DNA of 64,000 nucleotides from a virus (lineage: Duplodnaviria > Caudoviricetes). Of this stretch, positions 26,923 through 56,799 are shown one piece after another; the first letter of the stretch is position 1; each line of letters begins with the position of its first letter. The notes beneath the pieces were generated by a model. It was not told where the DNA came from. It saw only the letters and a list, made by a program, of their open reading frames with translations, and searched no databases. The DNA lies in IMG/VR virus record IMGVR_UViG_3300038679_000357, positions 128,001 to 192,000 of that record; one strand, 5' to 3'. The position numbers and the translations under genes were made by a program.

Positions 26923-27984
26923 CTATTTGGACTTTTCGTAGTCACTCCTCGCTCTCAAGCACATGCCCTGAGATACAGCATAAAAAGGATTGACTGACAT
27001 CCTCACATCAAGAACCTCAAACGGAAGCTCTTCTTTTGCTAATATAGACTTGAATCTACCAGCAACTCCTGGGATCATAGACGTACCACCAGCAAGAACT
27101 ATCTCGCACGGTCCATCAAACTCACGCTGAGACTTCTTCAACTCACGGCGAATATTAGTAATCGCCCTTGAAATCGTCTCATCATAATAGATGGAAAGGG
27201 CAGCGGCAAGCCTATCTGAAAAATCAATTTTAGCTAAATCCAGCTTCGTTTCCTTGTACTTCGTTACCTTCGACACTGGCGTACCAGTAACCGTTGCCGC
27301 CTGCTGATCAATATAATCTCCAGACTTCGTCACAGAAAATTCGCAAACGCTCAATCCCTTATACGCGCCAGCTACATTGAACATACCGCCACCCATTGAG
27401 ATACCAAAACCAGTAAGAGGGACATCACCATCTTCTGTGCGCATCAACGGATTTGAATCATAAACAACTCCAAGACCTTCGTTCAATGGAATGGCATTGA
27501 AACCGAGAGACGAAAGGAAGTTTTGAATGATCATTTGATGGAAAATGTTGTTTTTCGACGGCTCATCTACAGGATTGGCTGGAACAGAAAACCTTATCGG
27601 TTCTCCATCGAACTGCGGCACGCCAACCAAAGCCTTGATAATGTGGAACAAAAGCTCTTGACTCTGCTTGATCTCCGGGTTAAGCAGTCCATCACGCATA
27701 GGACGCATCACTTCTCCCTTTCCAAGAGCATTTACAAGTGAAAGGGCGTCTTTTCCAATGACGAAATATTTGTCATCACACTTGGCGTACAGATAGTTTC
27801 CTCTAGTGAGTAAATCAGTCGATTCATCACCGGCTGGAATTTCATATAGCATATTGCGACACGTCGTATTAACAAAATCGCCATCCTTTGTCTGCCTGCT
27901 GACGACCAAGTTAGCAGTGCCAACGTCAAGACCAACTCCTGGAAGGTATTGATGCTTTTCTTTTTCGGCTTTTGCCATCTTCAT
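26923..27984 (-). CDS. Actin-like ATPase (MreB/MamK/ParM superfamily)
   Basis: Phosphate-1 GLDVGTANLV, RPMRDGLL, connect-1 PLNEGLGVV, phosphate-2 ISMGGGMFNV, KSGDYID, adenosine motif IVLAGGTSMIPG. Confidence 0.85.
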   Translation of the reverse strand: MKMAKAEKEKHQYLPGVGLDVGTANLVVSRQTKDGDFVNTTCRNMLYEIPAGDESTDLLTRGNYLYAKCDDKYFVIGKDALSLVNALGKGEVMRPMRDGLLNPEIKQSQELLFHIIKALVGVPQFDGEPIRFSVPANPVDEPSKNNIFHQMIIQNFLSSLGFNAIPLNEGLGVVYDSNPLMRTEDGDVPLTGFGISMGGGMFNVAGAYKGLSVCEFSVTKSGDYIDQQAATVTGTPVSKVTKYKETKLDLAKIDFSDRLAAALSIYYDETISRAITNIRRELKKSQREFDGPCEIVLAGGTSMIPGVAGRFKSILAKEELPFEVLDVRMSVNPFYAVSQGMCLRARSDYEKSK

Positions 27985-28301
27985 TCTCCTATGGTACTCA
28001 ACATGTCAATCATCTTTTTCGTGCCACCTGACTTCACTACCTTTTCGGAGCTAGATAAATCTCCAGAAATTTCCGCATCCTTGGCGGCGGTAGATTGTCC
28101 AAATGCCTTTGCGACTACAGCTAAGGAATCTATATCTTTTTCCTCGACATGACCACCTCCAAAAACGGAGGGAATCATTTCTGAGGAGCGATTAACGACG
28201 GACGATCGGAAAGCCTCCAAAAGAAGCCTTCTAAACATATCCGACGAATACAATTCCTCTATCGCGTATTGTACAACCTTCTTAACCAACCACTTTAACA
28301 T
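27981..28301 (-). CDS. Hypothetical protein (106 aa), translationally coupled to the actin gene
   Basis: ATGA overlap with 26923..27984. Confidence 0.55.
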   Translation of the reverse strand: MLKWLVKKVVQYAIEELYSSDMFRRLLLEAFRSSVVNRSSEMIPSVFGGGHVEEKDIDSLAVVAKAFGQSTAAKDAEISGDLSSSEKVVKSGGTKKMIDMLSTIGE

Positions 28302-28558
28302 TTTCTTCTCTCGATGAATTGTTCTTCGAAAACACGACTCATATCAAGATCTTTGAGTGGGTCATTTGACAGTATCCTGGAAATATTGATCATGGCTATT
28401 TTTGTCATGGCTATCCGAATATAGAAAAGATCTCGCTCAGTGAAGCCGGAAACGTCAAAACCACTCGGGTGATCCATGATAAGTCTTTCTATTCTTTCAT
28501 AGACAGAATCCGAGCTGAATTTTGCCCCCACCCTTTTACCGTCCACAAAAAGGGACAA
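28295..28558 (-). CDS. Hypothetical protein (87 aa)
   Basis: Packed ORF within the operon. Confidence 0.5.
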   Translation of the reverse strand: MSLFVDGKRVGAKFSSDSVYERIERLIMDHPSGFDVSGFTERDLFYIRIAMTKIAMINISRILSNDPLKDLDMSRVFEEQFIERRKC

Positions 28559-28559
28559 A

Positions 28560-28772
28560 TCAACCTCTCATTATTCCAATTTGAGGAAGAGCAGATCTTT
28601 TGGCTGCTTCCTTATCGACTTTATCATTTCGAACTTGCATGACATTATGATGCTTACACTTTGGACAAACATACAAGATTCTCGACTCAAGAAAATCTAT
28701 TTCACACGCCACGGTGTCTTCTGACGCCATGCTAGGGAATCCGCATTTACCGCATTTCAAAGAAAGAATCAT
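28560..28772 (-). CDS. Small zinc-ribbon protein (70 aa)
   Basis: CGKC...CPKC pairs. Confidence 0.65.
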   Translation of the reverse strand: MILSLKCGKCGFPSMASEDTVACEIDFLESRILYVCPKCKHHNVMQVRNDKVDKEAAKRSALPQIGIMRG

Positions 28773-30862
28773 GAAGCGACTCCGTCAGGAGCATTAGCTT
28801 CAGGAGAAGAGCTATTTTCTGCAGGTGCTACTGCAATATTTGGAGAATTTGTTGGTGGACGAATAATATTTGTTCTCGCCGGTCTATTTTGAGGGTTACG
28901 TAAATGCCTTACGTCAGTAATCTTTGTAGGATCATATACAATAGCTCCTTGCAAATAATCAAAAGATTCGCCTTCCTTACTTTTTAGGAAAGATAGATTA
29001 TCTTTTTCAATGTTAATTTTCCATCCATCTATTACAGTTTCATTATATCTACTAAGTAGATCTTTATATCCATTAATACGACTGGAAAAATCTGAATCGG
29101 TCTCGTTGTCATTTTTTTCTACAGGCAAATTAACGAAGCCACCTTTTTTTCCTTGGTTTTTTAATCTGTCAATAATCGCCTTAATTTTGTTGTATTCGTC
29201 AGTCCCTATAAAAGTACCAAAAGGAAGATTAGAGGTATCGGAAACTTGAGTGGACGGATTAGCGTCTGGGGGTGCAGCCACTTGGGGTGCGACAGGCACA
29301 GGAGTAGATGCAGTAGGGGGAGTTGTGGTAGCGGAGGTGGCGGGAGTCTGAGAAGACTCAGAATCGCTATCATCTAGCTTTATTTTCTCTTCTGCCTTCG
29401 TAATCGCCGCACTCAAAATATCATTTGGATCAATATCCCCTGCAACAAGTTTCTTGGCGATATCATCTCGACCCATCATTTTTAATCCATTCGTCTTTAC
29501 CTCAGTCCAGAAACTAGAAGACGATGCATTATCGTCTATCATATTGGCAACAATCGAGGCTGACCAGCGAAGTGTTTTCAACACGGTATTGAGCATTTCG
29601 TACAAAGCCTGATTGCTAGATACTTCTGGTCGATCAATGTATTTTGACACACCGCGAAACACACTTGCAATGTGCTTAGCAATCTGTTGAACATGTACCA
29701 TGAAATTGTCGTTATATTTCTTTATAGTATCTATAGGAGTAGTCGCAGTCGACGTAGTAGGCGTAGAAGCCATTTCAGAAGTATCAGCAGACTCTGCCGC
29801 CAACACTTTACGGATACGATATATAGAAGCGACAACCCTATTTTCAGTCTTTTCCCTACCGCTTACCTGACGCACGTATTTCATCACGGGCTTGAAAATA
29901 CTATCTGAGAAATATTTCTTTGAGTTTCCCTGACTCTTAATTTCCTCTATGGTTTGGTTAACCAAATAACGACCATCCTCCCTGTAAAAATCATCAATTC
30001 TCTTTTCATCAAAGAGAATGGTTTCAGGTACTTCGTCATATTTTGCAATATCGTCTATAGACTCCTTATACACGCAATAAAATTTTAAGACATTGTAAAT
30101 ATCTTGAATTGAGTTTGACGGATAAAATGCCCTTCCTTCTCCAGGAACAATAGCTTCCTGTAGAGAATTTACCGACTTTACTAAATCCTTGTAAGTTAAC
30201 GGAGAAATCCACTCATCGTTGGCTTTTTTGGCTATTTCTGAGATAGTCTCATTAAACCTCTCCGACACTCTCGCCGTAACAGCCGGATCTTCCTTCTCTT
30301 CAACACTCTCTTCAACGGCAGCTTCGCTAGAATCCGCTCCTTGAGGCTGACTTATAGCTGGAGTAGATGATTGCCCTGGAGATTGAGCTGGAGACGCTGC
30401 TGGTGGAGTTGATTGCGGTTGAGTTGGTGTAGTTGATGCGGTAGGCTGTCCGGCAGGTGGTGTCGGAACCGCAGACGAAGATGGGGCATTAACTTGCTGT
30501 CCGCCAAGACTCGCTCCAGGAGTCGAAAAGGACTTCAGTGTTTTTTTACCAATTCCAGTTGTCTTTGCTTCCGCCCATCTAACTGGATCGTTCGCGATCA
30601 ATAAATCAGCAATAGAACCAAGATACTGAAGGGATTTGGCGATATCCTCATACTTCGAAATAAGATTCCCAACATCAGCATCTCGCAACCCACCCGCTGA
30701 CAAGGCTGCATCAATTGCCTTTTTTTCCGCCGTGAGTCCAGAAGCAGCTTTCTCTATTTCTTCGTATAGAATCTTTCCATATCCACGAAGAATATCCATT
30801 GCCTTATCAACATCAATGCGGTCTGTATTTGCATTATCTAAAGCAAGCTTCCAGATCTTCAT
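28769..30862 (-). CDS. Unknown 697-aa protein with Pro/Ser/Thr-rich linkers; candidate internal head protein
   Basis: N-terminus MKIWKLA; two long PTS/Q low-complexity tracts; GGAGG Shine-Dalgarno. Confidence 0.6.
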   Translation of the reverse strand: MKIWKLALDNANTDRIDVDKAMDILRGYGKILYEEIEKAASGLTAEKKAIDAALSAGGLRDADVGNLISKYEDIAKSLQYLGSIADLLIANDPVRWAEAKTTGIGKKTLKSFSTPGASLGGQQVNAPSSSAVPTPPAGQPTASTTPTQPQSTPPAASPAQSPGQSSTPAISQPQGADSSEAAVEESVEEKEDPAVTARVSERFNETISEIAKKANDEWISPLTYKDLVKSVNSLQEAIVPGEGRAFYPSNSIQDIYNVLKFYCVYKESIDDIAKYDEVPETILFDEKRIDDFYREDGRYLVNQTIEEIKSQGNSKKYFSDSIFKPVMKYVRQVSGREKTENRVVASIYRIRKVLAAESADTSEMASTPTTSTATTPIDTIKKYNDNFMVHVQQIAKHIASVFRGVSKYIDRPEVSSNQALYEMLNTVLKTLRWSASIVANMIDDNASSSSFWTEVKTNGLKMMGRDDIAKKLVAGDIDPNDILSAAITKAEEKIKLDDSDSESSQTPATSATTTPPTASTPVPVAPQVAAPPDANPSTQVSDTSNLPFGTFIGTDEYNKIKAIIDRLKNQGKKGGFVNLPVEKNDNETDSDFSSRINGYKDLLSRYNETVIDGWKINIEKDNLSFLKSKEGESFDYLQGAIVYDPTKITDVRHLRNPQNRPARTNIIRPPTNSPNIAVAPAENSSSPEANAPDGVAS

Positions 30863-30883
30863 AGCAGGAATCCTCCAGGTTAG

Positions 30884-31234
30884 TTATACCTTAGCTGGAG
30901 TAATAACTGGCTGATCAACTGCCGGAGAAGTAACAACTTCAGGTGCTTTCTTCGTATGAACCTGTGTTACCTTTTCTTTAGCAATGTCTAGCATGCCTTG
31001 CTGCACCTTTACGAGTCCGTCGAGGTACATATTCACCTTGTCGGTAAATTCATCATTTGACGCCATTGCATATTCACCAAGAGAAACGGACGCTTCAGAC
31101 AAGAGTGTAACGCACTTAAATAAGTCTCCAAGAGTCGCTTCTTTCTTCGGTTCAGAAGTTTTCACCTTACTGAGAGCGAGAACATTGAATGACGCACCCT
31201 GCATAATGTTATTCCCATTCTTTTCCATATTCAA
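30884..31234 (-). CDS. Small helical protein resembling a segment of the protease/scaffold
   Basis: Ungapped match LFKCVTLLSEASVSL...EF...L..L to LNQCLTTIEQVSVKL...EF...L..L. Confidence 0.55.
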   Translation of the reverse strand: MNMEKNGNNIMQGASFNVLALSKVKTSEPKKEATLGDLFKCVTLLSEASVSLGEYAMASNDEFTDKVNMYLDGLVKVQQGMLDIAKEKVTQVHTKKAPEVVTSPAVDQPVITPAKV

Positions 31235-31695
31235 ATCACTCCAAGTAGATTTTGATCAGTTGTTATTTTAGACGATAACCCGAAAACGTCACGGTTTCCG
31301 GTGTAAACGCTCATGTCGTTATACCATTTCTGCAAGGCGGATAGTCCTTCCTCTGAGCCAGTTTCAACAACCGCCCAAATTCCGTCTTCTATGTATGATT
31401 TTACAACGTTTACAAATGGCTTTAAGCGGCTATCGATAGACAGATCTACTATTAATCTTCCAAGTGGCGTACCGCTGGCATCCATCATGTATTTCATTGC
31501 ATCTTTAGGTATGGCATCCATTGGTCTCATGATGCTCTCAAGGATTACTTGGTTAACGTGCTTGCCATCAAAAACCTTAGCTTGCTGTTCTTCATCTGGA
31601 TCTGCATATGTCGTACCGGTAGAAACGCCTTCGTCTCCGGCTGGATTAACTCCTTCCGGAATAGATGACTGAGCGTATCTGTCTAACCAATCCAT
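31231..31695 (-). CDS. Hypothetical protein (154 aa) with N-terminal MDWLDRYAQ motif
   Basis: Packed ORF; N-terminal motif shared with 33618..34313. Confidence 0.6.
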   Translation of the reverse strand: MDWLDRYAQSSIPEGVNPAGDEGVSTGTTYADPDEEQQAKVFDGKHVNQVILESIMRPMDAIPKDAMKYMMDASGTPLGRLIVDLSIDSRLKPFVNVVKSYIEDGIWAVVETGSEEGLSALQKWYNDMSVYTGNRDVFGLSSKITTDQNLLGVI

Positions 31696-31704
31696 GAATT
31701 ATTC

Positions 31705-31720
31705 CCGTTGTATAATCAAA
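31705..31720 (+). promoter_or_regulatory. Promoter-like element CCGTTGTATAATCAAA upstream of the HNH gene
   Basis: Identical 16-mer occurs on the minus strand at 18765..18780, upstream of the chaperone gene. Confidence 0.55.
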
Positions 31721-31753
31721 CAAAATTACCTCAAAACAAACAAAAAATCCTGC

Positions 31754-32068
31754 ATGTCCAAAAAAGCAGTCAGAAAATCCATGAGATCAGGGGTGAAAAA
31801 ATGCCCCATCAGCGGCTATGTCGGTCCGCTCATAGAGCACCATATACATGGTCGTGAAATAAATGATGCAGAAAGCGACTGGAACAAAGCATGGATTTCC
31901 CCAAATGTACACGATATGATCCATCAAGGTGTGATCATAATCGAAGGATGGTTTATGACCTCAGAAGGAAGAACCCTCATTTGGAGATGGAACGGAGACG
32001 AAACGACAACAGGATTCTCAGCTACGCCTCCATCTTACGATGCACGACTTCTTCCACGCTCTTCTTAA
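31754..32068 (+). CDS. HNH endonuclease-like protein (the only plus-strand gene supported)
   Basis: KKCPISGYVGPLIEHHIHGREI...WNKAWISPNVHDMIH; likely start MSKKAV at 31754. Confidence 0.75.
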   Translation: MSKKAVRKSMRSGVKKCPISGYVGPLIEHHIHGREINDAESDWNKAWISPNVHDMIHQGVIIIEGWFMTSEGRTLIWRWNGDETTTGFSATPPSYDARLLPRSS

Positions 32069-32804
32069 TTTTTTCCACTCTCTTTTTGAATGAAGCAACC
32101 TTCTTTTCAGTAAATTTACTATGAAGAACCTCTTCCTTAGCCTCTTCCCAAAGATGACCTAAGTTTTTATCTCTAATTTTCTCTTTTAATATCTCCACAG
32201 TAGCCGCCAATTCACTTTCGCATCGATCATCTGACTTTTCATCGTATATCTCCCATATCATATAAACGATAAATAATAGCACAAAACCAACCGCAATGTA
32301 TGGAATATAATCGAAATACCATTGGCAAGCGACGCATAAGCACAAAAAGCCAAATCCACCAACAGCTATCCTCGATCCAACCCTGAGTTCAGCCCAAACT
32401 CGAATTATAATACCGATGACTCCCACGACAAATCCGAGCATAATCCCCTTATTGATCATTGACGACCAATAAACACGCTGCTCAATACGATGTTGAGTCA
32501 TCCTCATCTCAAAACTTTGCTGCGCATCAACAGGAGGAGGTATCACATTCACTTTCTTTGATATTCCACCAAAGCGAACTCCTGGCCAAATGGGAATACC
32601 TGGAATATACTGGTCATAAACCTCAACCGGAGCAGTGATGGCATCCACTCCAGTCTCTTTTTCTACGGCTTTCTCATTCGTTTTGTTGAGAAAGTCCCTT
32701 TCTTCACTGGTGATAGAACTAACTTTTTCCGATGTGGAATCAAGAATATTGCAGGAGCAATTCATCGCCATCAACAACATTGCCACAACCATCGCCCGTA
32801 TCAT
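32022..32804 (-). CDS. Membrane protein with lipoprotein-like signal peptide and three TM helices (possible lysis accessory)
   Basis: MIRAMVVAMLLMAMNCSC N-terminus; three hydrophobic segments at about aa 118-185; GAGGAGG Shine-Dalgarno. Confidence 0.55.
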   Translation of the reverse strand: MIRAMVVAMLLMAMNCSCNILDSTSEKVSSITSEERDFLNKTNEKAVEKETGVDAITAPVEVYDQYIPGIPIWPGVRFGGISKKVNVIPPPVDAQQSFEMRMTQHRIEQRVYWSSMINKGIMLGFVVGVIGIIIRVWAELRVGSRIAVGGFGFLCLCVACQWYFDYIPYIAVGFVLLFIVYMIWEIYDEKSDDRCESELAATVEILKEKIRDKNLGHLWEEAKEEVLHSKFTEKKVASFKKRVEKIKKSVEEVVHRKMEA

Positions 32805-32815
32805 CTAAAACCTCC

Positions 32816-33625
32816 TCAAATTTTTGCCTTTGCCATCTGTTCTTCCTGCACATAAACTGAATTAATTCGATCACGCCCCTCCATAACACTTCTTGCCAGC
32901 CTATGATTACCATCAATAACCACACCATCTTTTAACCTGATCAAAATCGGCTTAGATAAATCAGCAGTCCTTATCTTCGCCATATGCTTCATGTTAACTT
33001 CAGATGATGTAGGAGCAGACATTACATCAAACGGACTCAACGGAGACTCATCTTCTCCCCAAGAATTTTCTTTCAATTGAGCGGAAAGTTTCGACACTTT
33101 CGTCGGCACAACCTCATTATATTTTACCTCATCCAAAAGACGACCAACATCATAACAGCCATCTTCACTGCAATACACTTGACCTTTTGTCCAAGTGTCA
33201 GCAACAACTGTTGATGCCCAATGTCCAACTCCACTATTCCATTTTTTTGGAACCTCCTCCACAACAAGCCCAAGAAGATCAGGCTGGACCTGTTTTTTCA
33301 ACTCTTCTGGAGGATCGGCAACTGGAGTAGAAGTAAGATCAACCCTTTCGGCATCTCCCGTATCTTCACCGCCAAGAACACGATCAACTGCATTCCAGTT
33401 GACGACATAACTTCCAACCTTTTTCCCAGGCTCTCCACCATAGTCCTTAACCAAACCATACATCTTTCCAGGATCGGTAATTATGTCTCCATTATACGGA
33501 ATACGATTGACAAGGTATCCTATATATCCATCGTCGCTACGCATCTCAAAAAGAAAGTGACGACCTTTCGGCGTCTTTTTCTCCTTCAATTCTCTAAACC
33601 TACTGATTGCCGCAGATTTATACAT
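32816..33625 (-). CDS. Protein with C-terminal ParB/Srx-like domain
   Basis: KIRTADLSKPILIRLKDGVVIDGNHRLARSVMEG; likely start MYKSAA with GAGGA Shine-Dalgarno. Confidence 0.65.
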   Translation of the reverse strand: MYKSAAISRFRELKEKKTPKGRHFLFEMRSDDGYIGYLVNRIPYNGDIITDPGKMYGLVKDYGGEPGKKVGSYVVNWNAVDRVLGGEDTGDAERVDLTSTPVADPPEELKKQVQPDLLGLVVEEVPKKWNSGVGHWASTVVADTWTKGQVYCSEDGCYDVGRLLDEVKYNEVVPTKVSKLSAQLKENSWGEDESPLSPFDVMSAPTSSEVNMKHMAKIRTADLSKPILIRLKDGVVIDGNHRLARSVMEGRDRINSVYVQEEQMAKAKI

Positions 33626-34313
33626 CACGTTCCTCAATTTTAATATATTTTGGCGGAATAACGCCATAAACAATAATTGTATTCATTTCCGTCCCACTTT
33701 CTAAATCATACTGATATTGTCTATCTCCAAGCCTACTGGCGATATGTTCCATAACAAGTTTTTCAACAACATCTGGTTCAAGACTAGCATCAGGAAGATA
33801 ATTGTCATGCATCATGCCGGGGATATCGATCCGCAACATCACTTCTCCACTATACGTAGGGAATCCAACGGAAATAAAAACAGCCGCACCAACACCACGG
33901 TTACTAATTCCCCTCGTATTATTTTTTGGCTGTAAGCCATCACGCATGATTGACTCAATTTTTTCTGTATCAGTAACGTGATATCCATACTGATCTCCAT
34001 CGTATCCGAAATTATTAAAATCAATCATCCATGGAGACCCAAAAACACGATTAAAATAATCTTCTATACTAGATTGACGGAGAGAGAGAGATGGCAAAAA
34101 GTTTCTTATCTCCTCAATGTCGATATATTCAACATCAGTGATAAAAATTTGACCGTCAACCTCAAAAGACAAAACCTTAACGTTAAAATCAGAAAGATCC
34201 GTCTCTTTATAAGGGATGACACGACTATCAAGTATGTTTTTTAAGCATTGAATGTCTTCACAATCACTTGCGTCATCAACAATGCTTTGAGAATATTTTT
34301 TCATCCAGGACAT
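33618..34313 (-). CDS. ADP-ribosyltransferase-fold protein (KptA/Tpt1-like C-terminal domain) with N-terminal MSWMKKYSQ motif
   Basis: YGYHVTDTEKIESIMRDGLQP, AVFIS, MLRID and terminal IPPKYI. Confidence 0.7.
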   Translation of the reverse strand: MSWMKKYSQSIVDDASDCEDIQCLKNILDSRVIPYKETDLSDFNVKVLSFEVDGQIFITDVEYIDIEEIRNFLPSLSLRQSSIEDYFNRVFGSPWMIDFNNFGYDGDQYGYHVTDTEKIESIMRDGLQPKNNTRGISNRGVGAAVFISVGFPTYSGEVMLRIDIPGMMHDNYLPDASLEPDVVEKLVMEHIASRLGDRQYQYDLESGTEMNTIIVYGVIPPKYIKIEERDV

Positions 34314-34319
34314 GACTCA

Positions 34320-36368
34320 TCACCATTTTTCGAATACATATACATATTCATTTTTCTTGGCTCCATTCTTTCTTTGATAAGAAATAACTGGAGTTTCCAT
34401 AATAATTGTTCTGGATAACTTCATGCAATCAAACGATGACAAAAAATCGGCTGCAACATCATGCTCATCAGACTTCCCAATCGACAATGCAAAGCGTCCA
34501 TGCAAAGATAACTTCAAGCATGCTTCCGAACACACTGGAATCAACCACTCAAACAACCACTTTTTGTAGTCCGGATATCGAACATATGATTGACTTTCAT
34601 CGGCTGCATAAATTTCCTTATCAAAATACGGAGGCGACGTGAAAATAAGATCATATTCTCCCGATATATGTTTCAAGGCATCTTCTGCCGCCTCATTGTG
34701 AATCACACATTTTGTTTTATTAAAGTAAGAAGACATCTTCACTAGCCCAAGACAATTTTCCGACAATGGATCAATACCGGTATACGATGCAACTTCATGA
34801 GCGCAACATCCAAGTAGCCTGCCGCCAAATCCGGCGCAGAAATCAAGAACTCTCGTACTATTATCGCATTCCATGAGGTACATTATCGCCCTAGCTGCAG
34901 AAGGAAGGAAATTTCCAACGGACCGATTGCTACGATATTCTTTCAAGGCGCTTCTCATTCCAGCCGCAGTGCATGTCCCGCCGTACATTAACCTTCTATC
35001 AATCGCATCCATCAACAAATCATCATCATTAAAAATCTCTATTGGAGACAGCGATCCGCGTGTTCCCATGCTGAACATATGCCTTTGAAAATGCCAAATC
35101 ACATCAGTTGACATGGAGTTACATTTTATATTCACGTCATCAGACAGCAAATGACTCTTTGTCCAGTTCTTTATCCTCGACAAAGAGCAATCAACAGCTT
35201 CATCTGACAAATCAATATACGGAAAGCCATAATCTCGATAATGGCAAAATATTTCTCCGACTAGCTTCTTTCTGTCTACATCAGAGAGCGCTATATATTT
35301 ACTTTTTGTTGGTATAGACTCAAGCCTTGGAACAGCTCTCCTAGATATAGAACCATCGATCTTATATCGCATACATTCTATGATCCATGGGCGAATAATC
35401 TCAATCATCCTGCTTGCTGCTGACGGTCCACCACAAAGATAGTAATTCTTCTTTTTCTCCTTGCAGTTCGTAACCATATGTATGTCGAACCTATTGCGAA
35501 GGAACAAAGCTAGGCGCTCATTTTCTGCTTCACTGAATGAGCAGCTATAAATCCTGACTTCAATCGGAGTAGTTCCATCAAACCTCATGTATCCATCGTC
35601 CATCATCCAGTATGCTAACGATATTTCATTCATCTCCGCCAGAAAAGACTCATTTAATATCTTTACTCCATCAATATACGCCATATCCCTAAATTTAAGT
35701 AACTGATAATGGTTCCTGGTTCGAAAACAATGAGATTCAAACATTTTACCAAAACGATCATCATAATTAACAGTTACATCCACGTCAGAACGCACGTGTT
35801 CGGCAAACACCTCATTCAAATGAAGAGAATAAGCAGATTGAGATGGGACATGCTTTACTCGCAATGCGCCACCTTCATCAATGTGCCCATCCCCCATCAA
35901 CAATCCAACAACAACAGATCTCTGAAAAGAGGTCAACGGAATCGTTTCGCGACCGCGTACAAGCCCCTTATGTCCGATCCTTTTAACTCCATACAATTCA
36001 CGAAGAAAACCAATATGTCCACGCGGGATATCATACTTATCGGCAATATCATTCAACTCAAGAAAATTCTCCGCATACTCCTTCTTAAACAACTCCTCTG
36101 AAATATTTCCTCCCGTACGGCAAAACCAATTAAGAAAGGAAACCTGATGTTTTGAATAGCCATGCTCAACAAAATCATCGACCGTCCATCGGTTCTTAAC
36201 TAAAATAGCAACATATTCTCCTGTGCTGGAAAATCTTTTCTTCTTAGAAAAGGAGCCGCTACCATAAAATATCGGACGATCAACGAAGTTAAGCGTAACT
36301 TCGGCGATATTTTTATCCATCCGATCGGACAGAAGAGACGATAAAGATGGTGATTCTTTGATGAACAT
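34320..36368 (-). CDS. LAGLIDADG homing endonuclease fused to an amino-DNA methyltransferase
   Basis: GLLMGDGHI and LAYWMMDDGY (two LAGLIDADG motifs), IRPWIIECMRYKI, then RVLDFCAGFGGRLLG (motif I), YTGIDP and DLIFTSPPYFDKEIY (motif IV). Confidence 0.8.
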   Translation of the reverse strand: MFIKESPSLSSLLSDRMDKNIAEVTLNFVDRPIFYGSGSFSKKKRFSSTGEYVAILVKNRWTVDDFVEHGYSKHQVSFLNWFCRTGGNISEELFKKEYAENFLELNDIADKYDIPRGHIGFLRELYGVKRIGHKGLVRGRETIPLTSFQRSVVVGLLMGDGHIDEGGALRVKHVPSQSAYSLHLNEVFAEHVRSDVDVTVNYDDRFGKMFESHCFRTRNHYQLLKFRDMAYIDGVKILNESFLAEMNEISLAYWMMDDGYMRFDGTTPIEVRIYSCSFSEAENERLALFLRNRFDIHMVTNCKEKKKNYYLCGGPSAASRMIEIIRPWIIECMRYKIDGSISRRAVPRLESIPTKSKYIALSDVDRKKLVGEIFCHYRDYGFPYIDLSDEAVDCSLSRIKNWTKSHLLSDDVNIKCNSMSTDVIWHFQRHMFSMGTRGSLSPIEIFNDDDLLMDAIDRRLMYGGTCTAAGMRSALKEYRSNRSVGNFLPSAARAIMYLMECDNSTRVLDFCAGFGGRLLGCCAHEVASYTGIDPLSENCLGLVKMSSYFNKTKCVIHNEAAEDALKHISGEYDLIFTSPPYFDKEIYAADESQSYVRYPDYKKWLFEWLIPVCSEACLKLSLHGRFALSIGKSDEHDVAADFLSSFDCMKLSRTIIMETPVISYQRKNGAKKNEYVYVFEKW

Positions 36369-44493: not shown

Positions 44494-45360
44494 TCACGAA
44501 CCGCTGGAAACGACGACCTTGGCGCAAGCGTAGCTGTTAACCACGACAAAGCCAACTTCTTCGTAAATAACCCAGCCGAGACGAATACGGGACGGGTCGT
44601 CTGCCGGAAGGACAGTGATGTCCTGACGGATAGGCATTGCACCGAGATACTCGGCAGGAGCCAAGACGAACACGGTGTCGGTCGCCATCCTGGAGCTGAC
44701 GTGAATGTCGGCGGTCCAGATGTGCCCGAACAGACCAGTCGTCAGAACCTGACGGGTGGTCGCTTCGTCGTAGACGGTCTTGCCCCAGTTCCTGATGTCG
44801 ATGTAGCGGAATGCATGGCAAACCACTTTACCAACGGTCAGGTCGTGCTGCTCGACCAATCCGAAAGCCTGATTAAGAGCGGTGATCGAAAGCGCACCAC
44901 CAGTGCTGAGCACGGTGTGGTCTGCATCGATAGCGGCATTGATGACGCTGAAGATTTCAGTGTCTTCAACCTTGGCAATTGCTTCTTTCGCCTTGATCTG
45001 AGCGCGGTCGACAATGAAGAACCTACGAGCCTTCACTTCGGACAAACGAACAGTCGGGTGAGTTGCAATTTCGAACGTCGGGACAAGGATTTCCTCGCCT
45101 TCTTCAACCAACTGGGGAACTCCACCGCGACGGGAGATCTTCCAGGCGTTAGCCCGGACATCTTTCTCGTAGCGAGCATAAGCGCCCTGCGGCAATTCAT
45201 CAACCATGAGGAGCTTACGTCCAACCGCCTGGTATTCCAGTGCGCGACGGATCGGCTCGACCATGGCTTGAGCAAGAGCAACACGTCCACCCTCGGATTC
45301 CAAGGACTGGGCGATCAGGATTTCACGCTCCTGATTGACGGACTTTTTATCCATTGACAT
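44494..45360 (-). CDS. Major capsid protein (HK97/encapsulin-like fold, 288 aa)
   Basis: ALAQAMVEPIRRALEYQAVGRKLLMVDELPQGA...EILVPTFEIA...GWVIYEEVGFVVVN; GC-richer codons, GGAAGG Shine-Dalgarno, strong terminator, position after protease and decoration genes. Confidence 0.85.
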   Translation of the reverse strand: MSMDKKSVNQEREILIAQSLESEGGRVALAQAMVEPIRRALEYQAVGRKLLMVDELPQGAYARYEKDVRANAWKISRRGGVPQLVEEGEEILVPTFEIATHPTVRLSEVKARRFFIVDRAQIKAKEAIAKVEDTEIFSVINAAIDADHTVLSTGGALSITALNQAFGLVEQHDLTVGKVVCHAFRYIDIRNWGKTVYDEATTRQVLTTGLFGHIWTADIHVSSRMATDTVFVLAPAEYLGAMPIRQDITVLPADDPSRIRLGWVIYEEVGFVVVNSYACAKVVVSSGS

Positions 45361-51951: not shown

Positions 51952-54900
51952 TTATTCCAATTCGCCAGACTTGATGTACTTGTCTGATTGACGGCTTCCA
52001 ATAGTGAAATGAGAAGCTATTTTCTCAGTCAAGCTTTGCGCCTGATTCTTATTCTCTGGCATACCTTTATCTTCGATTACAACAGGAGTGGTCAAGGTAG
52101 AAGCTGTCTTCACGGTTTTGCCGGAATTCATCTTCGACGCCATTTTTTCCTGTTTATCGAGAGGCATGGTGGACAGAAGATCTACCATATCATCGTACTC
52201 AGACTCAACGATACTTCCATTGCCGAGCATGGTCGCAGCAATTTTGATCGCTTTGTCTCGTCTGGCGGTAGCAATCTTGGAACGATGTTCTTCGAGATTG
52301 GCAGTAACCCTGGTAGTCACTTCAACCTTTTCTGCGTCTTTGTGAGGAGCAGTTGCTTCTTCGCCAGAAGGAATGGAAGATTTTTCATCCCCCATCATAG
52401 CACCATCGCCCTTGCTTGGAACAACAGGTGCTTTTTCTTCGACTGGTTTCTCATCACCCATCGTCGCCTTGCCACGCGAAACGCAATCGCACTCAGATAT
52501 CGGCTTCGCTTCTCCAATAGAATCGCCAGCCGTTACAACGACTGTAATTCCATCAGAACCAGTAGAGGTTGACGAAGTGGCGATATTCCCCGTAATGGAG
52601 GTATTAATATCACCCTTTTTCTCTTCCTCTCCAAGATACTGAACCTTAACTGGGATTACGACCTCATCAGTCGATTTCGGAGCCGCTTCCTTCTCGTTGC
52701 CGAGATATCCATCGTTCTTGGCTTTCGGAATTTCCGGAGCCTTATCGGCTGGAGTAGTGTCCTTCTCCTCTCCCATCATAGCCTTACCGGATGGAATCTT
52801 TGCTTCGTCCTGCAGAAGCTTCTGAACAATCTTCTTGGTCTTCAACTTGTCAGTTTTGACCTTAACTTCATCACATGCCTTCGCCTTTTTTTCGGTTTTA
52901 GCGGTAGCGACACCATCTTCGACCTTCAAATCAGCGATGTTGGTTTCGTCGTCAGAGATCTGCTTCTCTTCGTTAGCTGTTTTCACAGCCTTACTTGGAG
53001 CAACATAACCAGCCATACGGCGCATAACACCTTTACTGAACATACCAGCAAAAGCTTCCATATAGAGGTTTTCATCTTCCTCTGTCTTGAAGCGTTCCTT
53101 GATACAAGCGCATACGTGCTTGGCGCGTTCCTCAGACAAACCGCTCTGACGTTTCTGCAACTTCACACATTCATCCATCGGATCAGCCTTGGTCTGAACT
53201 TCGCAAAGGCGCTTCATGTGCTTAACCTTATCAAGCCCGAAGGTTGAAAGCTGCTTGACAACTGTGTCAGCAAGTTTCTCTCCCTTAAACGGACCGTAGG
53301 ACACAACAGCATCTTTACCGTAGTTTTTAGCTACCCAAGCTTTAGCAGAAGCAACTGGGAATTGAGCCTTAGATGCAGACTTAATCATACGACCAAAGGC
53401 AATATCAGTTGCGAAAGCCTTCCGTGCCTTATTGCAAGATGCGCATTTACGCTTGGAAGGTTTCAAATTCCACTCAACCCTCATCTGTACGTTTTCTGGC
53501 GAATTCGTATCGATGATCAAATCACGCTGACAATGAGTTCCACAAGACGCGCATTTGGTAACATGCGAGCTTGGCTCGCCTTCCGCCGCTTGTTCGCGTC
53601 CACATCCAGGGCAAGCTACCTTGCCTTCACTGAACGCTTTAACAACGCGCCCAAATACCTGTTTATCAACCTTTACGGCTGCTGCAACAGGCATTTCCGG
53701 AAGTTCTGGCTCTTCCATACCATCTTCTTTCTTAGCGTTGTTAAACAACTCTTCAGGATTGAGGATGTCAACGTTGACGTGCATGATGTACTTCGCGCCA
53801 CAGTTATTGCAGTCGAACTGACCGGCATTCTGATCCTTACGACCAGTTTCAGTGTCATCCGCACCGCAAATCGGACAGATCGTGCCTGCCATCTTCTGCT
53901 CGTCGCCAGGAATATCTTCCTCTTCCGACACATCGTCAGTAAGAGTCTGAACGCCACCTTCTTCCGGCATAGCTTCTGGAGCCATGGCACTAGTATCTTC
54001 GGGAGCGGCTACACCGCCACCAGCATTAGGAACGCCAGGAGCACCACCGCCAAACTGAGCGGTCTTTACCTTTTTCTTTGTAGCTGCCATGCCAAGGATA
54101 TCATCAACCGACGTTTTTCCGGGAGCAGAAGCTCCTGGAGTAGACGCAGCACCCAACGCAGGAGCGGCAGGAGCTGGGGCAGGTGCTTCTGGGGCAGGGG
54201 TAGGAGCAGGGGCAGCCATGTCTTCAACACCTGCATCACCACCAAGATCTGTATCAAGGGAGGTGTCTTCCTTCACAGAAGACTTATCTCCGATAGGAAT
54301 TTCAACAGACTCTCCGCCATCAGTTTCTACGGCTATCGTAATGGTCTCACCATCAACAGTTACGTTTACCAAGCTGGCAAACTTCAAGCCACTCTGCTTA
54401 CATGCGGCACGAGCAAATTTGGACGCGATAATATTTCTATCTTCTTTAGACTCCTTACCAGTCAAACCAACCTCAGCCGCAGTCGCCTCAATCATATGAT
54501 CAGCAGCAACCACCTTATTGGACTTAATGTCAGATGCGATTGTTTTCGCTTCTTCCAATTGAGTTTTTGCACTGAAGAATGAATTGATCTGTTCAGTCAT
54601 TGAAGGTTCAAGATTCTCAGTAGGCACAGAAGCCTTGGCGATAATCTGATTAACCTTTTCTTCAACCATGTGCGAAGCGCTATTTGCAACAACCGCATGG
54701 AAGCACTCTACCAAGCACTCAGGATTCAACTCACCAGCCTTAATGGCTTCGGACGCATAAGACACGAGAGCGTCGCGAATGGTCATAGAAGACTGAGACT
54801 TGACGCCTTTTTTGCCCCAATACCCATTTCTTGATGCAAGCGTGACGATATCTTCAGATTTCGAATTATCATTCCACATTTCATAAGCAAAAGCCAATTT

Positions 54901-56799
54901 TGTACTTGACGTTCCGCCAGAGAAGGAGCAAGCTGCCTTCATAACTTGCTCTGGCGTGCTGCCACTGGCAACAACAACCTTGGCAAGAATGTCAGTGCTG
55001 GCTTCCACATGCTTTTGAATGGAAGAGGCAGAGCGAGCCCATGGAGTCTTGCTAAGCTGCTTCTCAGTTACCACGTCTTGTTCTTTGCCAACGCGATCAA
55101 CTTCCAATTGAGATTCCATAACGGCATCAGCTTCTTTACCAGTACGGGGTAGATCACCCTTATCAAGCTGCTTTTCAGTGATAACTTCAGTTGACTTTCC
55201 AGTACGGGACAAATCACCTTTTTCAAGTTGCTTTTCAGTAATGTCAGAAATGTCCTTACCATCCCTTTCTTTTTCAAGCTGTTTTTCCATTACAACATCA
55301 GCTTCTTTGCCTGTGCGAGAAGATTCGAGTTGTGCTTCGTTCGTCTCGTGGAGATCGGCACCCTTGGCTTTTGCCTCCACATTCATTCCCTTAGACATGG
55401 CTTGACCTCCACTTGTCGTTAGATCTTTATTAATAGCTTCTGTGAGATTGTTACTGAAAATTTTCAATTTCTCCTGCCAATTACCATCAAGAACTTCTTT
55501 TGTCCTCTCTCTGTCGCTTGCAGATTTAATTGGCATGCGCCTCATTTCGTCCTCCGTTTGACTCTTTTTAGGCTTGATCGGTCTGGTCAGTTGACTCTTC
55601 GCAGCCGGTCTTGTAGCTTCTTTGAAATCACTTAATGCCGAAGGAGCCGACGGAGGCTCTACAATAGGTTTTTCTGTATTTGTTGTTCCAGCAATATCAG
55701 CTTCTTGCGAAACGGGCTGGGTAGCAGGAGCGCCAGGAGCTGGAGCAGGAGCTGGAGGCGCAGACTGATCAGGAGAAACTCCAGGAACAGGCTGTCCAGA
55801 GGACTCAGGCAACTGACCATAACCAGCCTGCACTAGCTGGTCTACGAAATCCTGCAAACTTGCAAGAATTTCAACAAGATCGCTGGCAAACTCCATTTCA
55901 ACATTAGCACGATTCTGAATCAATTTAACAGAAACTTGTTCAATTGTCGTAAGACATTGATTGAGTTGTTCTACGTCTTGCTGAGAAGCATTCTTTTCAA
56001 GTGACGCGGTACGAACAACGGAAATGTTGTTGTAGCACGTAGAAGCAGCCTTAACAAGACTTTCGTACGATCCAGCAGCCTTGTCCTCACAGCCACATTG
56101 CCCAAACTCGCTGCCATCATAAATCTGATCAATCCTGCAACTCGTACACGCAGGATCGGCAACGCCACTTAGTTCAATAAAGCGCAAGTCATAATTGTGT
56201 TCAAAAACCAACTCAGCTTTAACTTCGCGAGTTTTTCCGGTTCTTACATTTTTCACAGATCCGGTAAACTTACGCCCTTTAAAGTTCTTGATATGTGAGC
56301 AATATTCGTCAACAGTTGATGCCCTATTACCACACAGCGAACATTCAGAGTAGCCGACAGACGCCCCCATACTGACGCCAGTCATATACTCTTGTTCTAT
56401 TCCACGGCACAAATTCGGATATGCGTCTCGATCAACAAACGCCACTACATAAACAGACTTCTCATCTTCAATCCATTCCGCCCATACAATCTTACCTTTT
56501 GCGCGTTCTATATTTTGATTATCATGATTAGTGAAGAATGGCACGCCAACAAATGTTTGATAACTTTTCTTCAACTCTGAAGCGGAAAAAGAGTCGCCAT
56601 TGTTATTGGGAATATCAGCCTCGATCGCCTTGGCGCGGAAAAAAAGAGCATTTTTATGCTTCTTCATTTCTGCAACGATTACATTTCTCGCTTCGTTTTC
56701 AATCCCCTTTTTAGAAGATGCTGTTCTAATGAAGCCACCTTCGTAGGATTCGACTTTGTCAATCGAAGTAAAAGAAAAACTAGCTGATTTGTTGATCAT
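51952..56799 (-). CDS. Prohead protease fused to a long scaffold/core region (about 1615 aa)
   Basis: N-terminal protease motifs NNNGDSF, PFFTNHD, KGKIV, GVSMG, CSLCG...YCSHI, FIELSGVADPA; then about 1350 aa of charged and Pro/Ala-rich sequence with Zn-finger-like CxxC pairs. Likely start MINKSAS. Confidence 0.85.
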   Translation of the reverse strand: MINKSASFSFTSIDKVESYEGGFIRTASSKKGIENEARNVIVAEMKKHKNALFFRAKAIEADIPNNNGDSFSASELKKSYQTFVGVPFFTNHDNQNIERAKGKIVWAEWIEDEKSVYVVAFVDRDAYPNLCRGIEQEYMTGVSMGASVGYSECSLCGNRASTVDEYCSHIKNFKGRKFTGSVKNVRTGKTREVKAELVFEHNYDLRFIELSGVADPACTSCRIDQIYDGSEFGQCGCEDKAAGSYESLVKAASTCYNNISVVRTASLEKNASQQDVEQLNQCLTTIEQVSVKLIQNRANVEMEFASDLVEILASLQDFVDQLVQAGYGQLPESSGQPVPGVSPDQSAPPAPAPAPGAPATQPVSQEADIAGTTNTEKPIVEPPSAPSALSDFKEATRPAAKSQLTRPIKPKKSQTEDEMRRMPIKSASDRERTKEVLDGNWQEKLKIFSNNLTEAINKDLTTSGGQAMSKGMNVEAKAKGADLHETNEAQLESSRTGKEADVVMEKQLEKERDGKDISDITEKQLEKGDLSRTGKSTEVITEKQLDKGDLPRTGKEADAVMESQLEVDRVGKEQDVVTEKQLSKTPWARSASSIQKHVEASTDILAKVVVASGSTPEQVMKAACSFSGGTSSTKLAFAYEMWNDNSKSEDIVTLASRNGYWGKKGVKSQSSMTIRDALVSYASEAIKAGELNPECLVECFHAVVANSASHMVEEKVNQIIAKASVPTENLEPSMTEQINSFFSAKTQLEEAKTIASDIKSNKVVAADHMIEATAAEVGLTGKESKEDRNIIASKFARAACKQSGLKFASLVNVTVDGETITIAVETDGGESVEIPIGDKSSVKEDTSLDTDLGGDAGVEDMAAPAPTPAPEAPAPAPAAPALGAASTPGASAPGKTSVDDILGMAATKKKVKTAQFGGGAPGVPNAGGGVAAPEDTSAMAPEAMPEEGGVQTLTDDVSEEEDIPGDEQKMAGTICPICGADDTETGRKDQNAGQFDCNNCGAKYIMHVNVDILNPEELFNNAKKEDGMEEPELPEMPVAAAVKVDKQVFGRVVKAFSEGKVACPGCGREQAAEGEPSSHVTKCASCGTHCQRDLIIDTNSPENVQMRVEWNLKPSKRKCASCNKARKAFATDIAFGRMIKSASKAQFPVASAKAWVAKNYGKDAVVSYGPFKGEKLADTVVKQLSTFGLDKVKHMKRLCEVQTKADPMDECVKLQKRQSGLSEERAKHVCACIKERFKTEEDENLYMEAFAGMFSKGVMRRMAGYVAPSKAVKTANEEKQISDDETNIADLKVEDGVATAKTEKKAKACDEVKVKTDKLKTKKIVQKLLQDEAKIPSGKAMMGEEKDTTPADKAPEIPKAKNDGYLGNEKEAAPKSTDEVVIPVKVQYLGEEEKKGDINTSITGNIATSSTSTGSDGITVVVTAGDSIGEAKPISECDCVSRGKATMGDEKPVEEKAPVVPSKGDGAMMGDEKSSIPSGEEATAPHKDAEKVEVTTRVTANLEEHRSKIATARRDKAIKIAATMLGNGSIVESEYDDMVDLLSTMPLDKQEKMASKMNSGKTVKTASTLTTPVVIEDKGMPENKNQAQSLTEKIASHFTIGSRQSDKYIKSGELE
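52380..52800 (-). repeat. Five imperfect protein repeats ([ML]G[DEN]E[KE]...P) near the scaffold C-terminus
   Basis: GKAMMGEEK, GYLGNEK, QYLGEEEK, GKATMGDEK, GAMMGDEK. Confidence 0.7.
55050..55350 (-). repeat. Six tandem 16-19-aa repeats (E[KSA]QL...R[TDV]GK) in the scaffold region
   Basis: NEAQLESSRTGK / MEKQLEKERDGK / TEKQLEKGDLSRTGK / TEKQLDKGDLPRTGK / MESQLEVDRVGK / TEKQLSK. Confidence 0.85.

Follow-up and report, generated by a model that had tools for sequence, protein, structure and literature searches.

The stretch of DNA analysed here (the window) comprises 64,000 nucleotides, bases 128,001-192,000 of the 255,142-bp viral record IMGVR_UViG_3300038679_000357 (Duplodnaviria; Caudoviricetes). 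Coordinates are those of the window unless marked as genome positions. Nearly all genes of the window lie on the minus strand. Matches to PHROGs identify the head genes, namely portal, a protease-scaffold polyprotein and the major capsid protein (MCP), the last of which shares 57% identity with gp27 of Bacillus phage G, identifying this genome as a phage G relative. The block at 28769-34313, located between the capsid region and the genes of neck and tail, encodes p231, p269, p260, p154, p114 and p697 in this order of transcription, with an HNH-like open reading frame (ORF) on the opposite strand between p260 and p154 (Table 1). Pfam and PHROGs are nearly empty for all the block proteins, and there were zero matches to GenBank phages by megablast of 20 kb or by tblastn of p231. 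Several of these proteins begin with short leader peptides, which are the subject of this analysis: they belong to a portable N-terminal tag found on many otherwise unrelated proteins of phages with a phage-G-type capsid, and the tag may well address its carriers to the phage head.

The sequence-only reading of the block took four peptides at the starts of unrelated proteins to be one shared signal. All four are confirmed at gene starts on the minus strand (MKIWKLA at 30862, MDWLDRYAQ at 31695, MYKSAA at 33625 and MSWMKKYSQ at 34313), and three of them stand as tags, in two classes rather than one. MDWLDRYAQ and MSWMKKYSQ belong to class A, which in this genome takes the form M-[DST]-W-[LFM]-x-[KR]-[YFR]-[AGS]-Q. 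MKIWKLA has no Trp at position 3 and fits a second class found by comparison, class B (M-K-I-W-K-L-A here, M-K-I-[YWF]-K-φ-[AS] in general, with φ for a hydrophobic residue), which is found on unrelated proteins of relatives as MKIYKIAD, MKIWKIADK, MKIYRLAQ and MKIFKISQ. MYKSAA, the start of p269, was dropped as a tag: in four homologues the N-terminus is unrelated to it (MSGNSQII, or an extension of 40 residues). In a six-frame scan of the whole genome, the strict class A pattern M-x-W-[LFMIVY]-x-[KR] was found at six start-proximal Mets out of 417 and was absent from the 1553 in-frame Mets in gene interiors (Fisher p = 9e-5), with 0.087 matches per proteome expected when the first 60 residues of every protein are shuffled. 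The regular expression originally suggested for a genome-wide count also separates the two, with three starts and no internal Mets. A loose requirement, that K-x-[AS]-[SNQ] fall no more than ten residues from the start, shows no enrichment (8 observed, 4.3 +/- 2.1 expected). The DNA upstream of tagged starts is not conserved and synonymous positions differ between tags, suggesting that selection acts on the peptide and not on the DNA; the lack of upstream conservation also led us to reject a promoter or ribosome-binding-site cassette as the repeated unit.

The tag is not peculiar to this genome. We examined 80 loci around related MCP genes (58-79% identity), where class A, in the form M-[NSDT]-W-[YFLM]..[KR], occurs at 45 gene starts compared with two internal Mets, and class B (the MKIY type) at 13 starts compared with three internal Mets; a third flavour, M[NS]NW, is found at four further starts, which makes 62 starts altogether. 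Tags of relatives mostly read MNWYK[KRT][AS][QSN] or M[KR]I[YWF][KR][LIT][AS], the commonest class A wordings being MNWYKKAQ, MNWYKRSQ and MNWYKTAS. One locus has seven tagged genes in a row, and the content of the tag clusters varies from locus to locus. In loci longer than 15 kb, all 60 of the tagged starts counted are found downstream of the MCP gene, at 0-8 kb from it, an asymmetry that is partly trivial because the giant scaffold gene fills most of the upstream 10 kb. Of 2.9 million IMG/VR contigs, 22 contain the exact DNA for MNWYKKA, in 28 stretches altogether; the 80 MCP relatives account for 12 of them, three more have the same MCP type, and the rest are mostly fragments. A complete relative of 548 kb carries 12 copies of the tag in four clusters. 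Phage G has a variant of its own, [M/L/V]-K-R-L-[IMFK]-K-K-[SAG], on gp17, gp38 and at least eight further genes across its 498-kb genome, with looser variants on gp13, gp53 and gp57. Our search of the literature, including full text, found no paper describing the tag in phage G or its relatives.

That the proteins behind the tag are unrelated is clear from a collection of 66 tagged proteins (nine from this genome), which, with 12 residues trimmed, fall into 57 unrelated BLAST groups. The portable N-terminal tag on unrelated proteins that had been proposed from the block is thereby borne out. Pfam domains start right behind it, at residue 13 for AAA_33 (from position 1 of the domain), 11 for cREC_REC, 16 for DUF5662 and 18 for HicA, and the tag is a separate module ahead of complete domains. 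The two classes also interchange on the same cargo: p231 begins with MSWMKKYSQ, and its sole detectable orthologue, in locus L007 (~30% identity by tblastn and alignment), begins with the class B leader MKIFKISQ. In five p154 homologues with 28-48% identity, M1, W3 and Q9 are invariant, and the next ~30 residues are unalignable and vary in length. Among the tagged proteins of this genome, that starting with MTWFDKFGQ (443 residues) ends in a Tad6 domain, an inhibitor of type I Thoeris (E = 4.9e-39). Tagged proteins of relatives include Acb1/2H-phosphoesterase, ADP-ribosyltransferase (ART)-PolyVal, cREC receiver, CCA/poly(A)-polymerase-HD, P-loop kinase, HicA and GNAT proteins; the ART-PolyVal protein of locus L004, which is unrelated to p697, starts with MKIWKIADK. 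Three of the families represented, Tad6, Acb1-like and ART-PolyVal, are known for anti-defence roles.

The end of the tag resembles a motif of the protease-scaffold polyprotein. This protein has a putative head-maturation protease domain at residues ~28-265 (its first ~220 residues by the PHROGs match), followed by a long scaffold-like tail. The repetition of [KR][TS]A[SNQ] in it, and the likeness of the tag to this motif, had been noticed from the sequence, and the counts agree: there are nine copies where 0.54 are expected (positions 4, 25, 263, 425, 589, 912, 1140, 1273 and 1564), they bracket the protease domain, and the rest of the 77,852-residue proteome (~76,000 residues) contains only seven. 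Across 67 homologous polyproteins the motif occurs 190 times compared with 27.5 +/- 4.9 in shuffled sequences, KTAS alone 105 times compared with 3.8 expected (28-fold), and its rate is 1.44 per 1000 residues compared with 0.33 in neighbouring ORFs. In 26 aligned protease domains the sites hold their place at the N-terminus (M-φ-x-K-x-A-[ST]) and at ~27 (φ-[KR]-T-A-S), and a third aligned site at ~265 ([KR]-T-A-[SA]) is found in the 11 closest sequences only. The sites at ~27 and ~265 lie on either side of the protease domain, as would be the case for self-release sites. The site logo has Ile/Val at P4, Lys/Arg at P3, Thr/Ser at P2, Ala at P1 and Ser/Gln/Asn at P1', and the tags MNWYKTAS, MNWYKTAN and MNWYKKAQ of relatives end exactly in words of the scaffold motif. 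A conserved cut site ~50 residues from the scaffold C-terminus was considered as a general feature and rejected, being present in only 10 of 66 homologues.

The protease domain itself matches phrog_18299, and no Pfam Peptidase_S77 was found in it at E < 0.01. His92 is invariant and the serine of an 'SMG' motif is conserved across the 26 protease-domain homologues, with no solved relative found by sequence onto which to map the triad; searches of PDB sequences with the protease domain and with p231 gave nothing below E = 0.3. A complex prediction for the protease domain (28-262) with the N-terminus of p154 (1-40) scored 0.01, which counts neither way. In four loci (L014, L028, L044 and L032; alignment columns ~187-300) the protease domain ends abruptly at 'GYI[AT]G' and gives way to 'CFPPDAPVLMSDGT...', which looks like an intein inserted at the catalytic Ser motif. 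Several head-module proteins of phage G contain K-T-A-[SN]. Outside the window, three proteins start with MKIIIAKDSS (genome position 246497, minus strand), MIIKIASGKS (252525, minus strand) and MKGRTANTPS (1685, plus strand), which are closer to the scaffold N-terminus (M-φ-x-K-x-A-S) than to the Trp-type tag and could be either additional cargo or chance resemblances. The MCP's N-terminus shares the register of the leaders, with a hydrophobic residue at 3, Lys5 (in 74 of the 80 relatives) and, at 7, a small residue. The start of the protease-scaffold is in the same register; for the capsid protein, the likeness may reflect binding rather than cutting.

Taking these observations together with what is known of other phages, the leaders are on balance probably a portable head-address tag, that is, a capsid-targeting propeptide, of phages with a phage-G-type capsid; that the tag is also clipped after its small residue we rate somewhat less probable than the targeting itself. 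During prohead assembly, the tag would bind the scaffolding core built from the 1615-residue polyprotein, its recogniser being either the scaffold-borne protease or another part of that core. The simplest route would be that the tag is read like the polyprotein's own φ-[KR]-x-[AS]/[SNQ] sites (a slash within such a motif marks the presumed cut). The tagged protein would thereby be enclosed in the head, where the activated protease would cut itself out at K-T-A/S sites and clip the tag after the small residue, leaving the packaged cargo to be injected with the DNA. Tad6, the Acb1-like proteins, the ART-PolyVal protein and the ART-fold p231 make sense as cargo that is delivered ready-made.

A broader form of this proposal is advanced more tentatively: phages with a phage-G-type capsid, phage G included (MKRLIKK[SA]), possibly pack many unrelated enzymes by means of a single label of 7-9 residues read by an HK97-like protease-scaffold that cuts after Ala/Ser, the cargo including ready-made Thoeris and CBASS inhibitors and nucleic-acid-type ARTs, so that counter-defence arrives already made. 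Should the tag act as a head address, the injected proteins of a giant, mostly uncultured phage clade could be read from sequence alone, Tad6 and the Acb1-like inhibitors would act from the first second of infection without awaiting gene expression, and very large capsids could be loaded with foreign proteins by means of a very short peptide. Phage G, a cultured phage with a tag variant of its own, makes the idea directly testable.

The closest precedent is the capsid-targeting sequence (CTS) of phage T4, described on IPI, IPII, IPIII and Alt and as being removed by gp21, the protease of the prohead (Mullaney and Black 1996, as cited in PMC7411985; PMC3012670), and which loads diverse anti-defence internal proteins as well as the ART Alt (PMC3012670, PMC7411985). 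Both systems have a tag of about ten residues at the extreme N-terminus of otherwise unrelated, fast-changing proteins, both have cargo that includes an ADP-ribosyltransferase and anti-defence proteins, encoded in genes that cluster and differ between relatives, and in both the tag ends in the motif of the phage's own head protease, a motif that is putative here and derived from motif statistics. The peptides themselves differ (MKTYQEFIAE in T4; MNWYKKAQ, MDWLDKYAQ and MKIYKIA here), as does the presumed cut, which here would follow Ala/Ser/Gly with Lys/Arg at P3, and not Glu: the Leu/Ile-x-Glu motif of gp21 is absent, and the tags end in [KR]-x-[ASG]-[QSN]. Furthermore, the protease domain is not detected as the gp21 type (S77) and is fused to a scaffold of 1400-2400 residues, the capsid is of the phage G type without a long N-terminal delta domain, and the system is known from its sequence alone. 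We regard the tag as a real clade-wide feature and, arguing by analogy as to its function, as a variant of the T4 CTS principle; it would then be a second, independent case of that principle with another protease specificity.

In the phiKZ-like phage SPN3US, gp47, gp53 and gp54 have N-terminal propeptides that are cut by gp245 at A-x-E (PMC7411985, PMC5694885). This is likewise a giant phage in which many head-internal proteins have propeptides that end in the protease motif and for which prohead targeting has been proposed, but those propeptides are 111-130 residues long, protein-specific and cut after Glu, whereas the tags here have 7-9 residues and are common to unrelated proteins. The herpesvirus assemblin-scaffold precursor is cut between Ala and Ser at its release and maturation sites. 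As in the polyprotein described here, where this is deduced from motif statistics, its protease is fused to a scaffold and sites of the Ala/Ser type flank the protease domain, and a site 40-75 residues from the C-terminal end is a likeness of the closest relatives only (10 of 66 homologues). The relationship is a distant one, and we know of no cargo-tag system in the case of assemblin. The C-terminal capsid-targeting tail of the HK97 protease and the cargo-loading peptides of encapsulins demonstrate that a short terminal peptide suffices for entry into an HK97-fold shell; these peptides are mostly C-terminal and are not removed, and to our knowledge they are not common to dozens of unrelated enzymes in a phage.

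Several observations weigh against a head address. Tagged genes occur far from the head genes, both in this genome (genome position 38091 and 243-253 kb) and in the 548-kb relative (59-62, 115-122 and 288 kb); the tag clusters of loci L009 and L012 are on the strand opposite the capsid gene; several tagged proteins of relatives are of the HTH or sigma-region-4 type, no obvious cargo for a head; p154 and p697 keep their place beside an actin-like gene and could have another role; and p231 begins at Met4 in public gene calls. The scatter of tagged genes over the genome, the transcription-factor-like proteins and the conserved module that joins p154 and p697 to a Volactin-like actin would suit a tag that serves some other machine: a modifying enzyme, a chaperone or unfoldase (of the Clp type, or the 1959-residue AAA+ protein beside the protease), a degradation signal that would limit how long the proteins last, or placement on another structure such as the actin-like filament encoded next to p154 and p697. 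We think this unlikely. By eye, no partner enzyme recurs beside the clusters (the neighbouring ORFs were listed, not family-scanned), and such a machine would leave unexplained both that the tag ends in a motif 7- to 28-fold enriched in the protease-scaffold, where it flanks the protease domain, and that the tag tracks this capsid type across IMG/VR. The fit of the tag to the putative cut site is also incomplete, and this too speaks against the proposal where clipping is concerned. The class A tags of this genome (R-Y-A-Q, K-Y-S-Q, K-F-G-Q) match it at P3, P1 and P1' only, having Tyr/Phe/Arg at P2 and Asp/Glu/Lys at P4 where the scaffold has Thr/Ser and Ile/Val, and most capsid N-termini have Gly/Asn at position 7 and then Leu, unlike K-T-A/S. 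A signal for binding only, which imitates either the capsid protein's N-terminal arm or the scaffold's start and brings proteins into proheads by co-assembly without ever being cut, much like the encapsulin cargo-loading peptides or the targeting tail of the HK97 protease, would account for this partial fit and for capsid N-termini that share the register, mostly without a site of the K-T-A/S type. It is a decidedly doubtful explanation; many tags of relatives end in exact KTAS, KTAN or KKAQ, the words of the presumed self-cutting sites.

It is very improbable that the conserved element acts at the level of nucleic acid, for example as an A-rich start region for translation or as a homology patch for the swapping of cassettes, with the peptide a by-product. 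Within one genome the codons can be near-identical (ATG AAC TGG TAT AAA AAA GCA in all seven genes of L009), many tagged genes have no clear Shine-Dalgarno sequence, and the clusters are hypervariable between relatives, all as such an element would have it; however, near-identity is to be expected of Asn, Trp, Tyr and Lys, none of which has more than two codons. Moreover, in this genome and between genomes synonymous sites vary while residues are kept (GAT/GAC, TTA/CTG/TTC, AAA/AAG/AGA, GCT/GCA/TCT), Trp3 and Gln9 remain invariant where the proteins are 28-48% identical, and two peptide classes are found on orthologous cargo.

Table 1. Positions of the genes of the block, of head and neighbouring genes, and of the class A leaders in the genome (window coordinates unless marked as genome positions).
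Feature	Position	Strand	Length (aa)	Description
Portal	61108-63465			head gene by PHROGs
Protease-scaffold polyprotein	51952-56799	-	1615	phrog_18299, E = 1.2e-18
MCP	44494-45360	-	288	phrog_2522, E = 2.4e-67; N-terminus MSMDKKSV
LAGLIDADG-methyltransferase ORF	34320-36368	-		
p231	33618-34313	-		class A leader MSWMKKYSQ, codons 34287-34313
p269	32816-33625	-		ParB/Srx-like C-terminal domain (DGNHRLAR); N-terminus MYKSAA
p260	32022-32804	-	260	membrane protein, hydrophobic segments in translation; no leader, no family match
HNH-like ORF	31694-32068	+	124	His-Asn-His pattern, from translation only; no Pfam or PHROGs match
p154	31231-31695	-		class A leader MDWLDRYAQ, codons 31669-31695
p114	30884-31228	-	114	small conserved protein between p154 and p697; no leader
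p697	28769-30862	-		class B leader MKIWKLAL, codons 30839-30862
Volactin-like actin	26923-27984	-		with 27981-28772; Pfam PF25216, E = 2.5e-59
MTWFDKFGQ	genome 38091			class A leader
MDWLDRYAQ	genome 159695			class A leader, p154
MSWMKKYSQ	genome 162313			class A leader, p231
MDWFEKRSQ	genome 194025			class A leader
MDWLEKYAY	genome 243271			class A leader
MDWLTKHFN	genome 252619			class A leader

Within the block, p231, p269, p260 and the HNH-like ORF form a variable island upstream of a module of p154, p114 and p697; in the 80 relatives, counterparts of p231, p269 and p260 are few or absent in the 10 kb around the capsid gene. The sequence-only reading took the block to consist of probable capsid-targeted cargo. 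That description fits p231, p154 and p697, and does not extend to the 114-residue protein, the 260-residue membrane protein or the HNH-like ORF, which have no tag. Nor are p154, p114 and p697 variable effectors: they belong to a conserved module beside the actin-like gene, and the order p154, p114, p697, Zn-ribbon protein, two small proteins, actin and neck genes is kept in two distant contigs (L083 and L084), with the actin between head and neck genes.

In p231 the leader and an acidic stretch are followed by a beta-alpha domain in the N-terminal part and, at the C-terminus (~95-231), by a domain with the fold of ADP-ribosyltransferases, as judged from a poor structural model (pLDDT 53) on which all the fold matches rest. 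With VIA, the model matches KptA (Z 9.6, root-mean-square deviation 2.3 A, 82 residues aligned, 24% identity), mouse Tpt1 (Z 8.8) and DarT (Z 6.7), the top 20 rows are all of the ART fold, and the best Foldseek matches are likewise Tpt1, KptA and DarT. On this low-confidence model, the C-terminal half of p231 has an ART fold, and it may belong to the Tpt1/KptA/DarT branch. Checked for the catalytic Arg-His-Arg-Arg of Tpt1 or a triad of the His-Tyr-Glu type, the sequence shows Y111-H112-x-T114, F146-x-S148 and E209, which are common to the two known homologues. The N-terminal lobe is unlike that of Tpt1, a Pfam scan yields no ART family, and a word-indexed homologue search with p231 returned only p231 itself.

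In p269, residues 196-266 match phrog_17560 (function unknown), no Pfam family is matched at E < 0.01, and the DGNHRLAR sequence (a DG-x-HRLAR block) is invariant in five homologues. A 134-residue protein of locus L012 that starts with MNWYKKAS is 28% identical to p269 over 61 residues (pairwise E = 2e-6). Tagged ART and ParB-like cargo, as envisaged for the block, is thus represented by p231 (through its VIA match to KptA/Tpt1) and by this small ParB-like protein with a full tag, and not by the ParB-like p269 of the window.

In p154 the leader gives way to a linker, disordered and rich in Gly/Ala/Glu, that ends near residue 40 and leads into a helical domain. AlphaFold2 predicts a helix at 3-8, pLDDT below 50 at 5-37 and helices from residue 44, and Foldseek of this model against viral structures found nothing. 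Kinship of p154 to the portal, considered after N-terminal portal fragments appeared in the ESM Atlas with a score of 0.98, was dropped: against the portal of this phage BLASTP gave E = 0.03 and hhalign 0.2, PHROGs gave nothing, and the idea is left without support. Orthologues of p114 are found at the same position in L083 and L084. Behind its leader, p697 consists of helical segments linked by Pro/Thr/Ser/Gln-rich stretches, and Pfam, PHROGs and the ESM Atlas provide no lead to its family or fold; its orthologues start with MRIYKIAE (946 residues, L083) and MRIRKIVE (632 residues, L084).

The HNH-like ORF is probably a homing-endonuclease insertion and not cargo, to judge from its translation; its start is one base from the p154 start codon, and it has a 47-base overlap with the end of p260. 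In the LAGLIDADG-methyltransferase ORF, the LAGLIDADG half has no counterpart in relatives, and tblastn matches to the ORF in 17 loci span only residues ~362-681, so that a conserved methyltransferase gene seems to have gained a LAGLIDADG endonuclease by insertion or by fusion. In the records behind loci L109, L114 and L127, stop codons divide the phage-G-type capsid gene into two or three pieces, which suggests introns or homing elements within the MCP gene.

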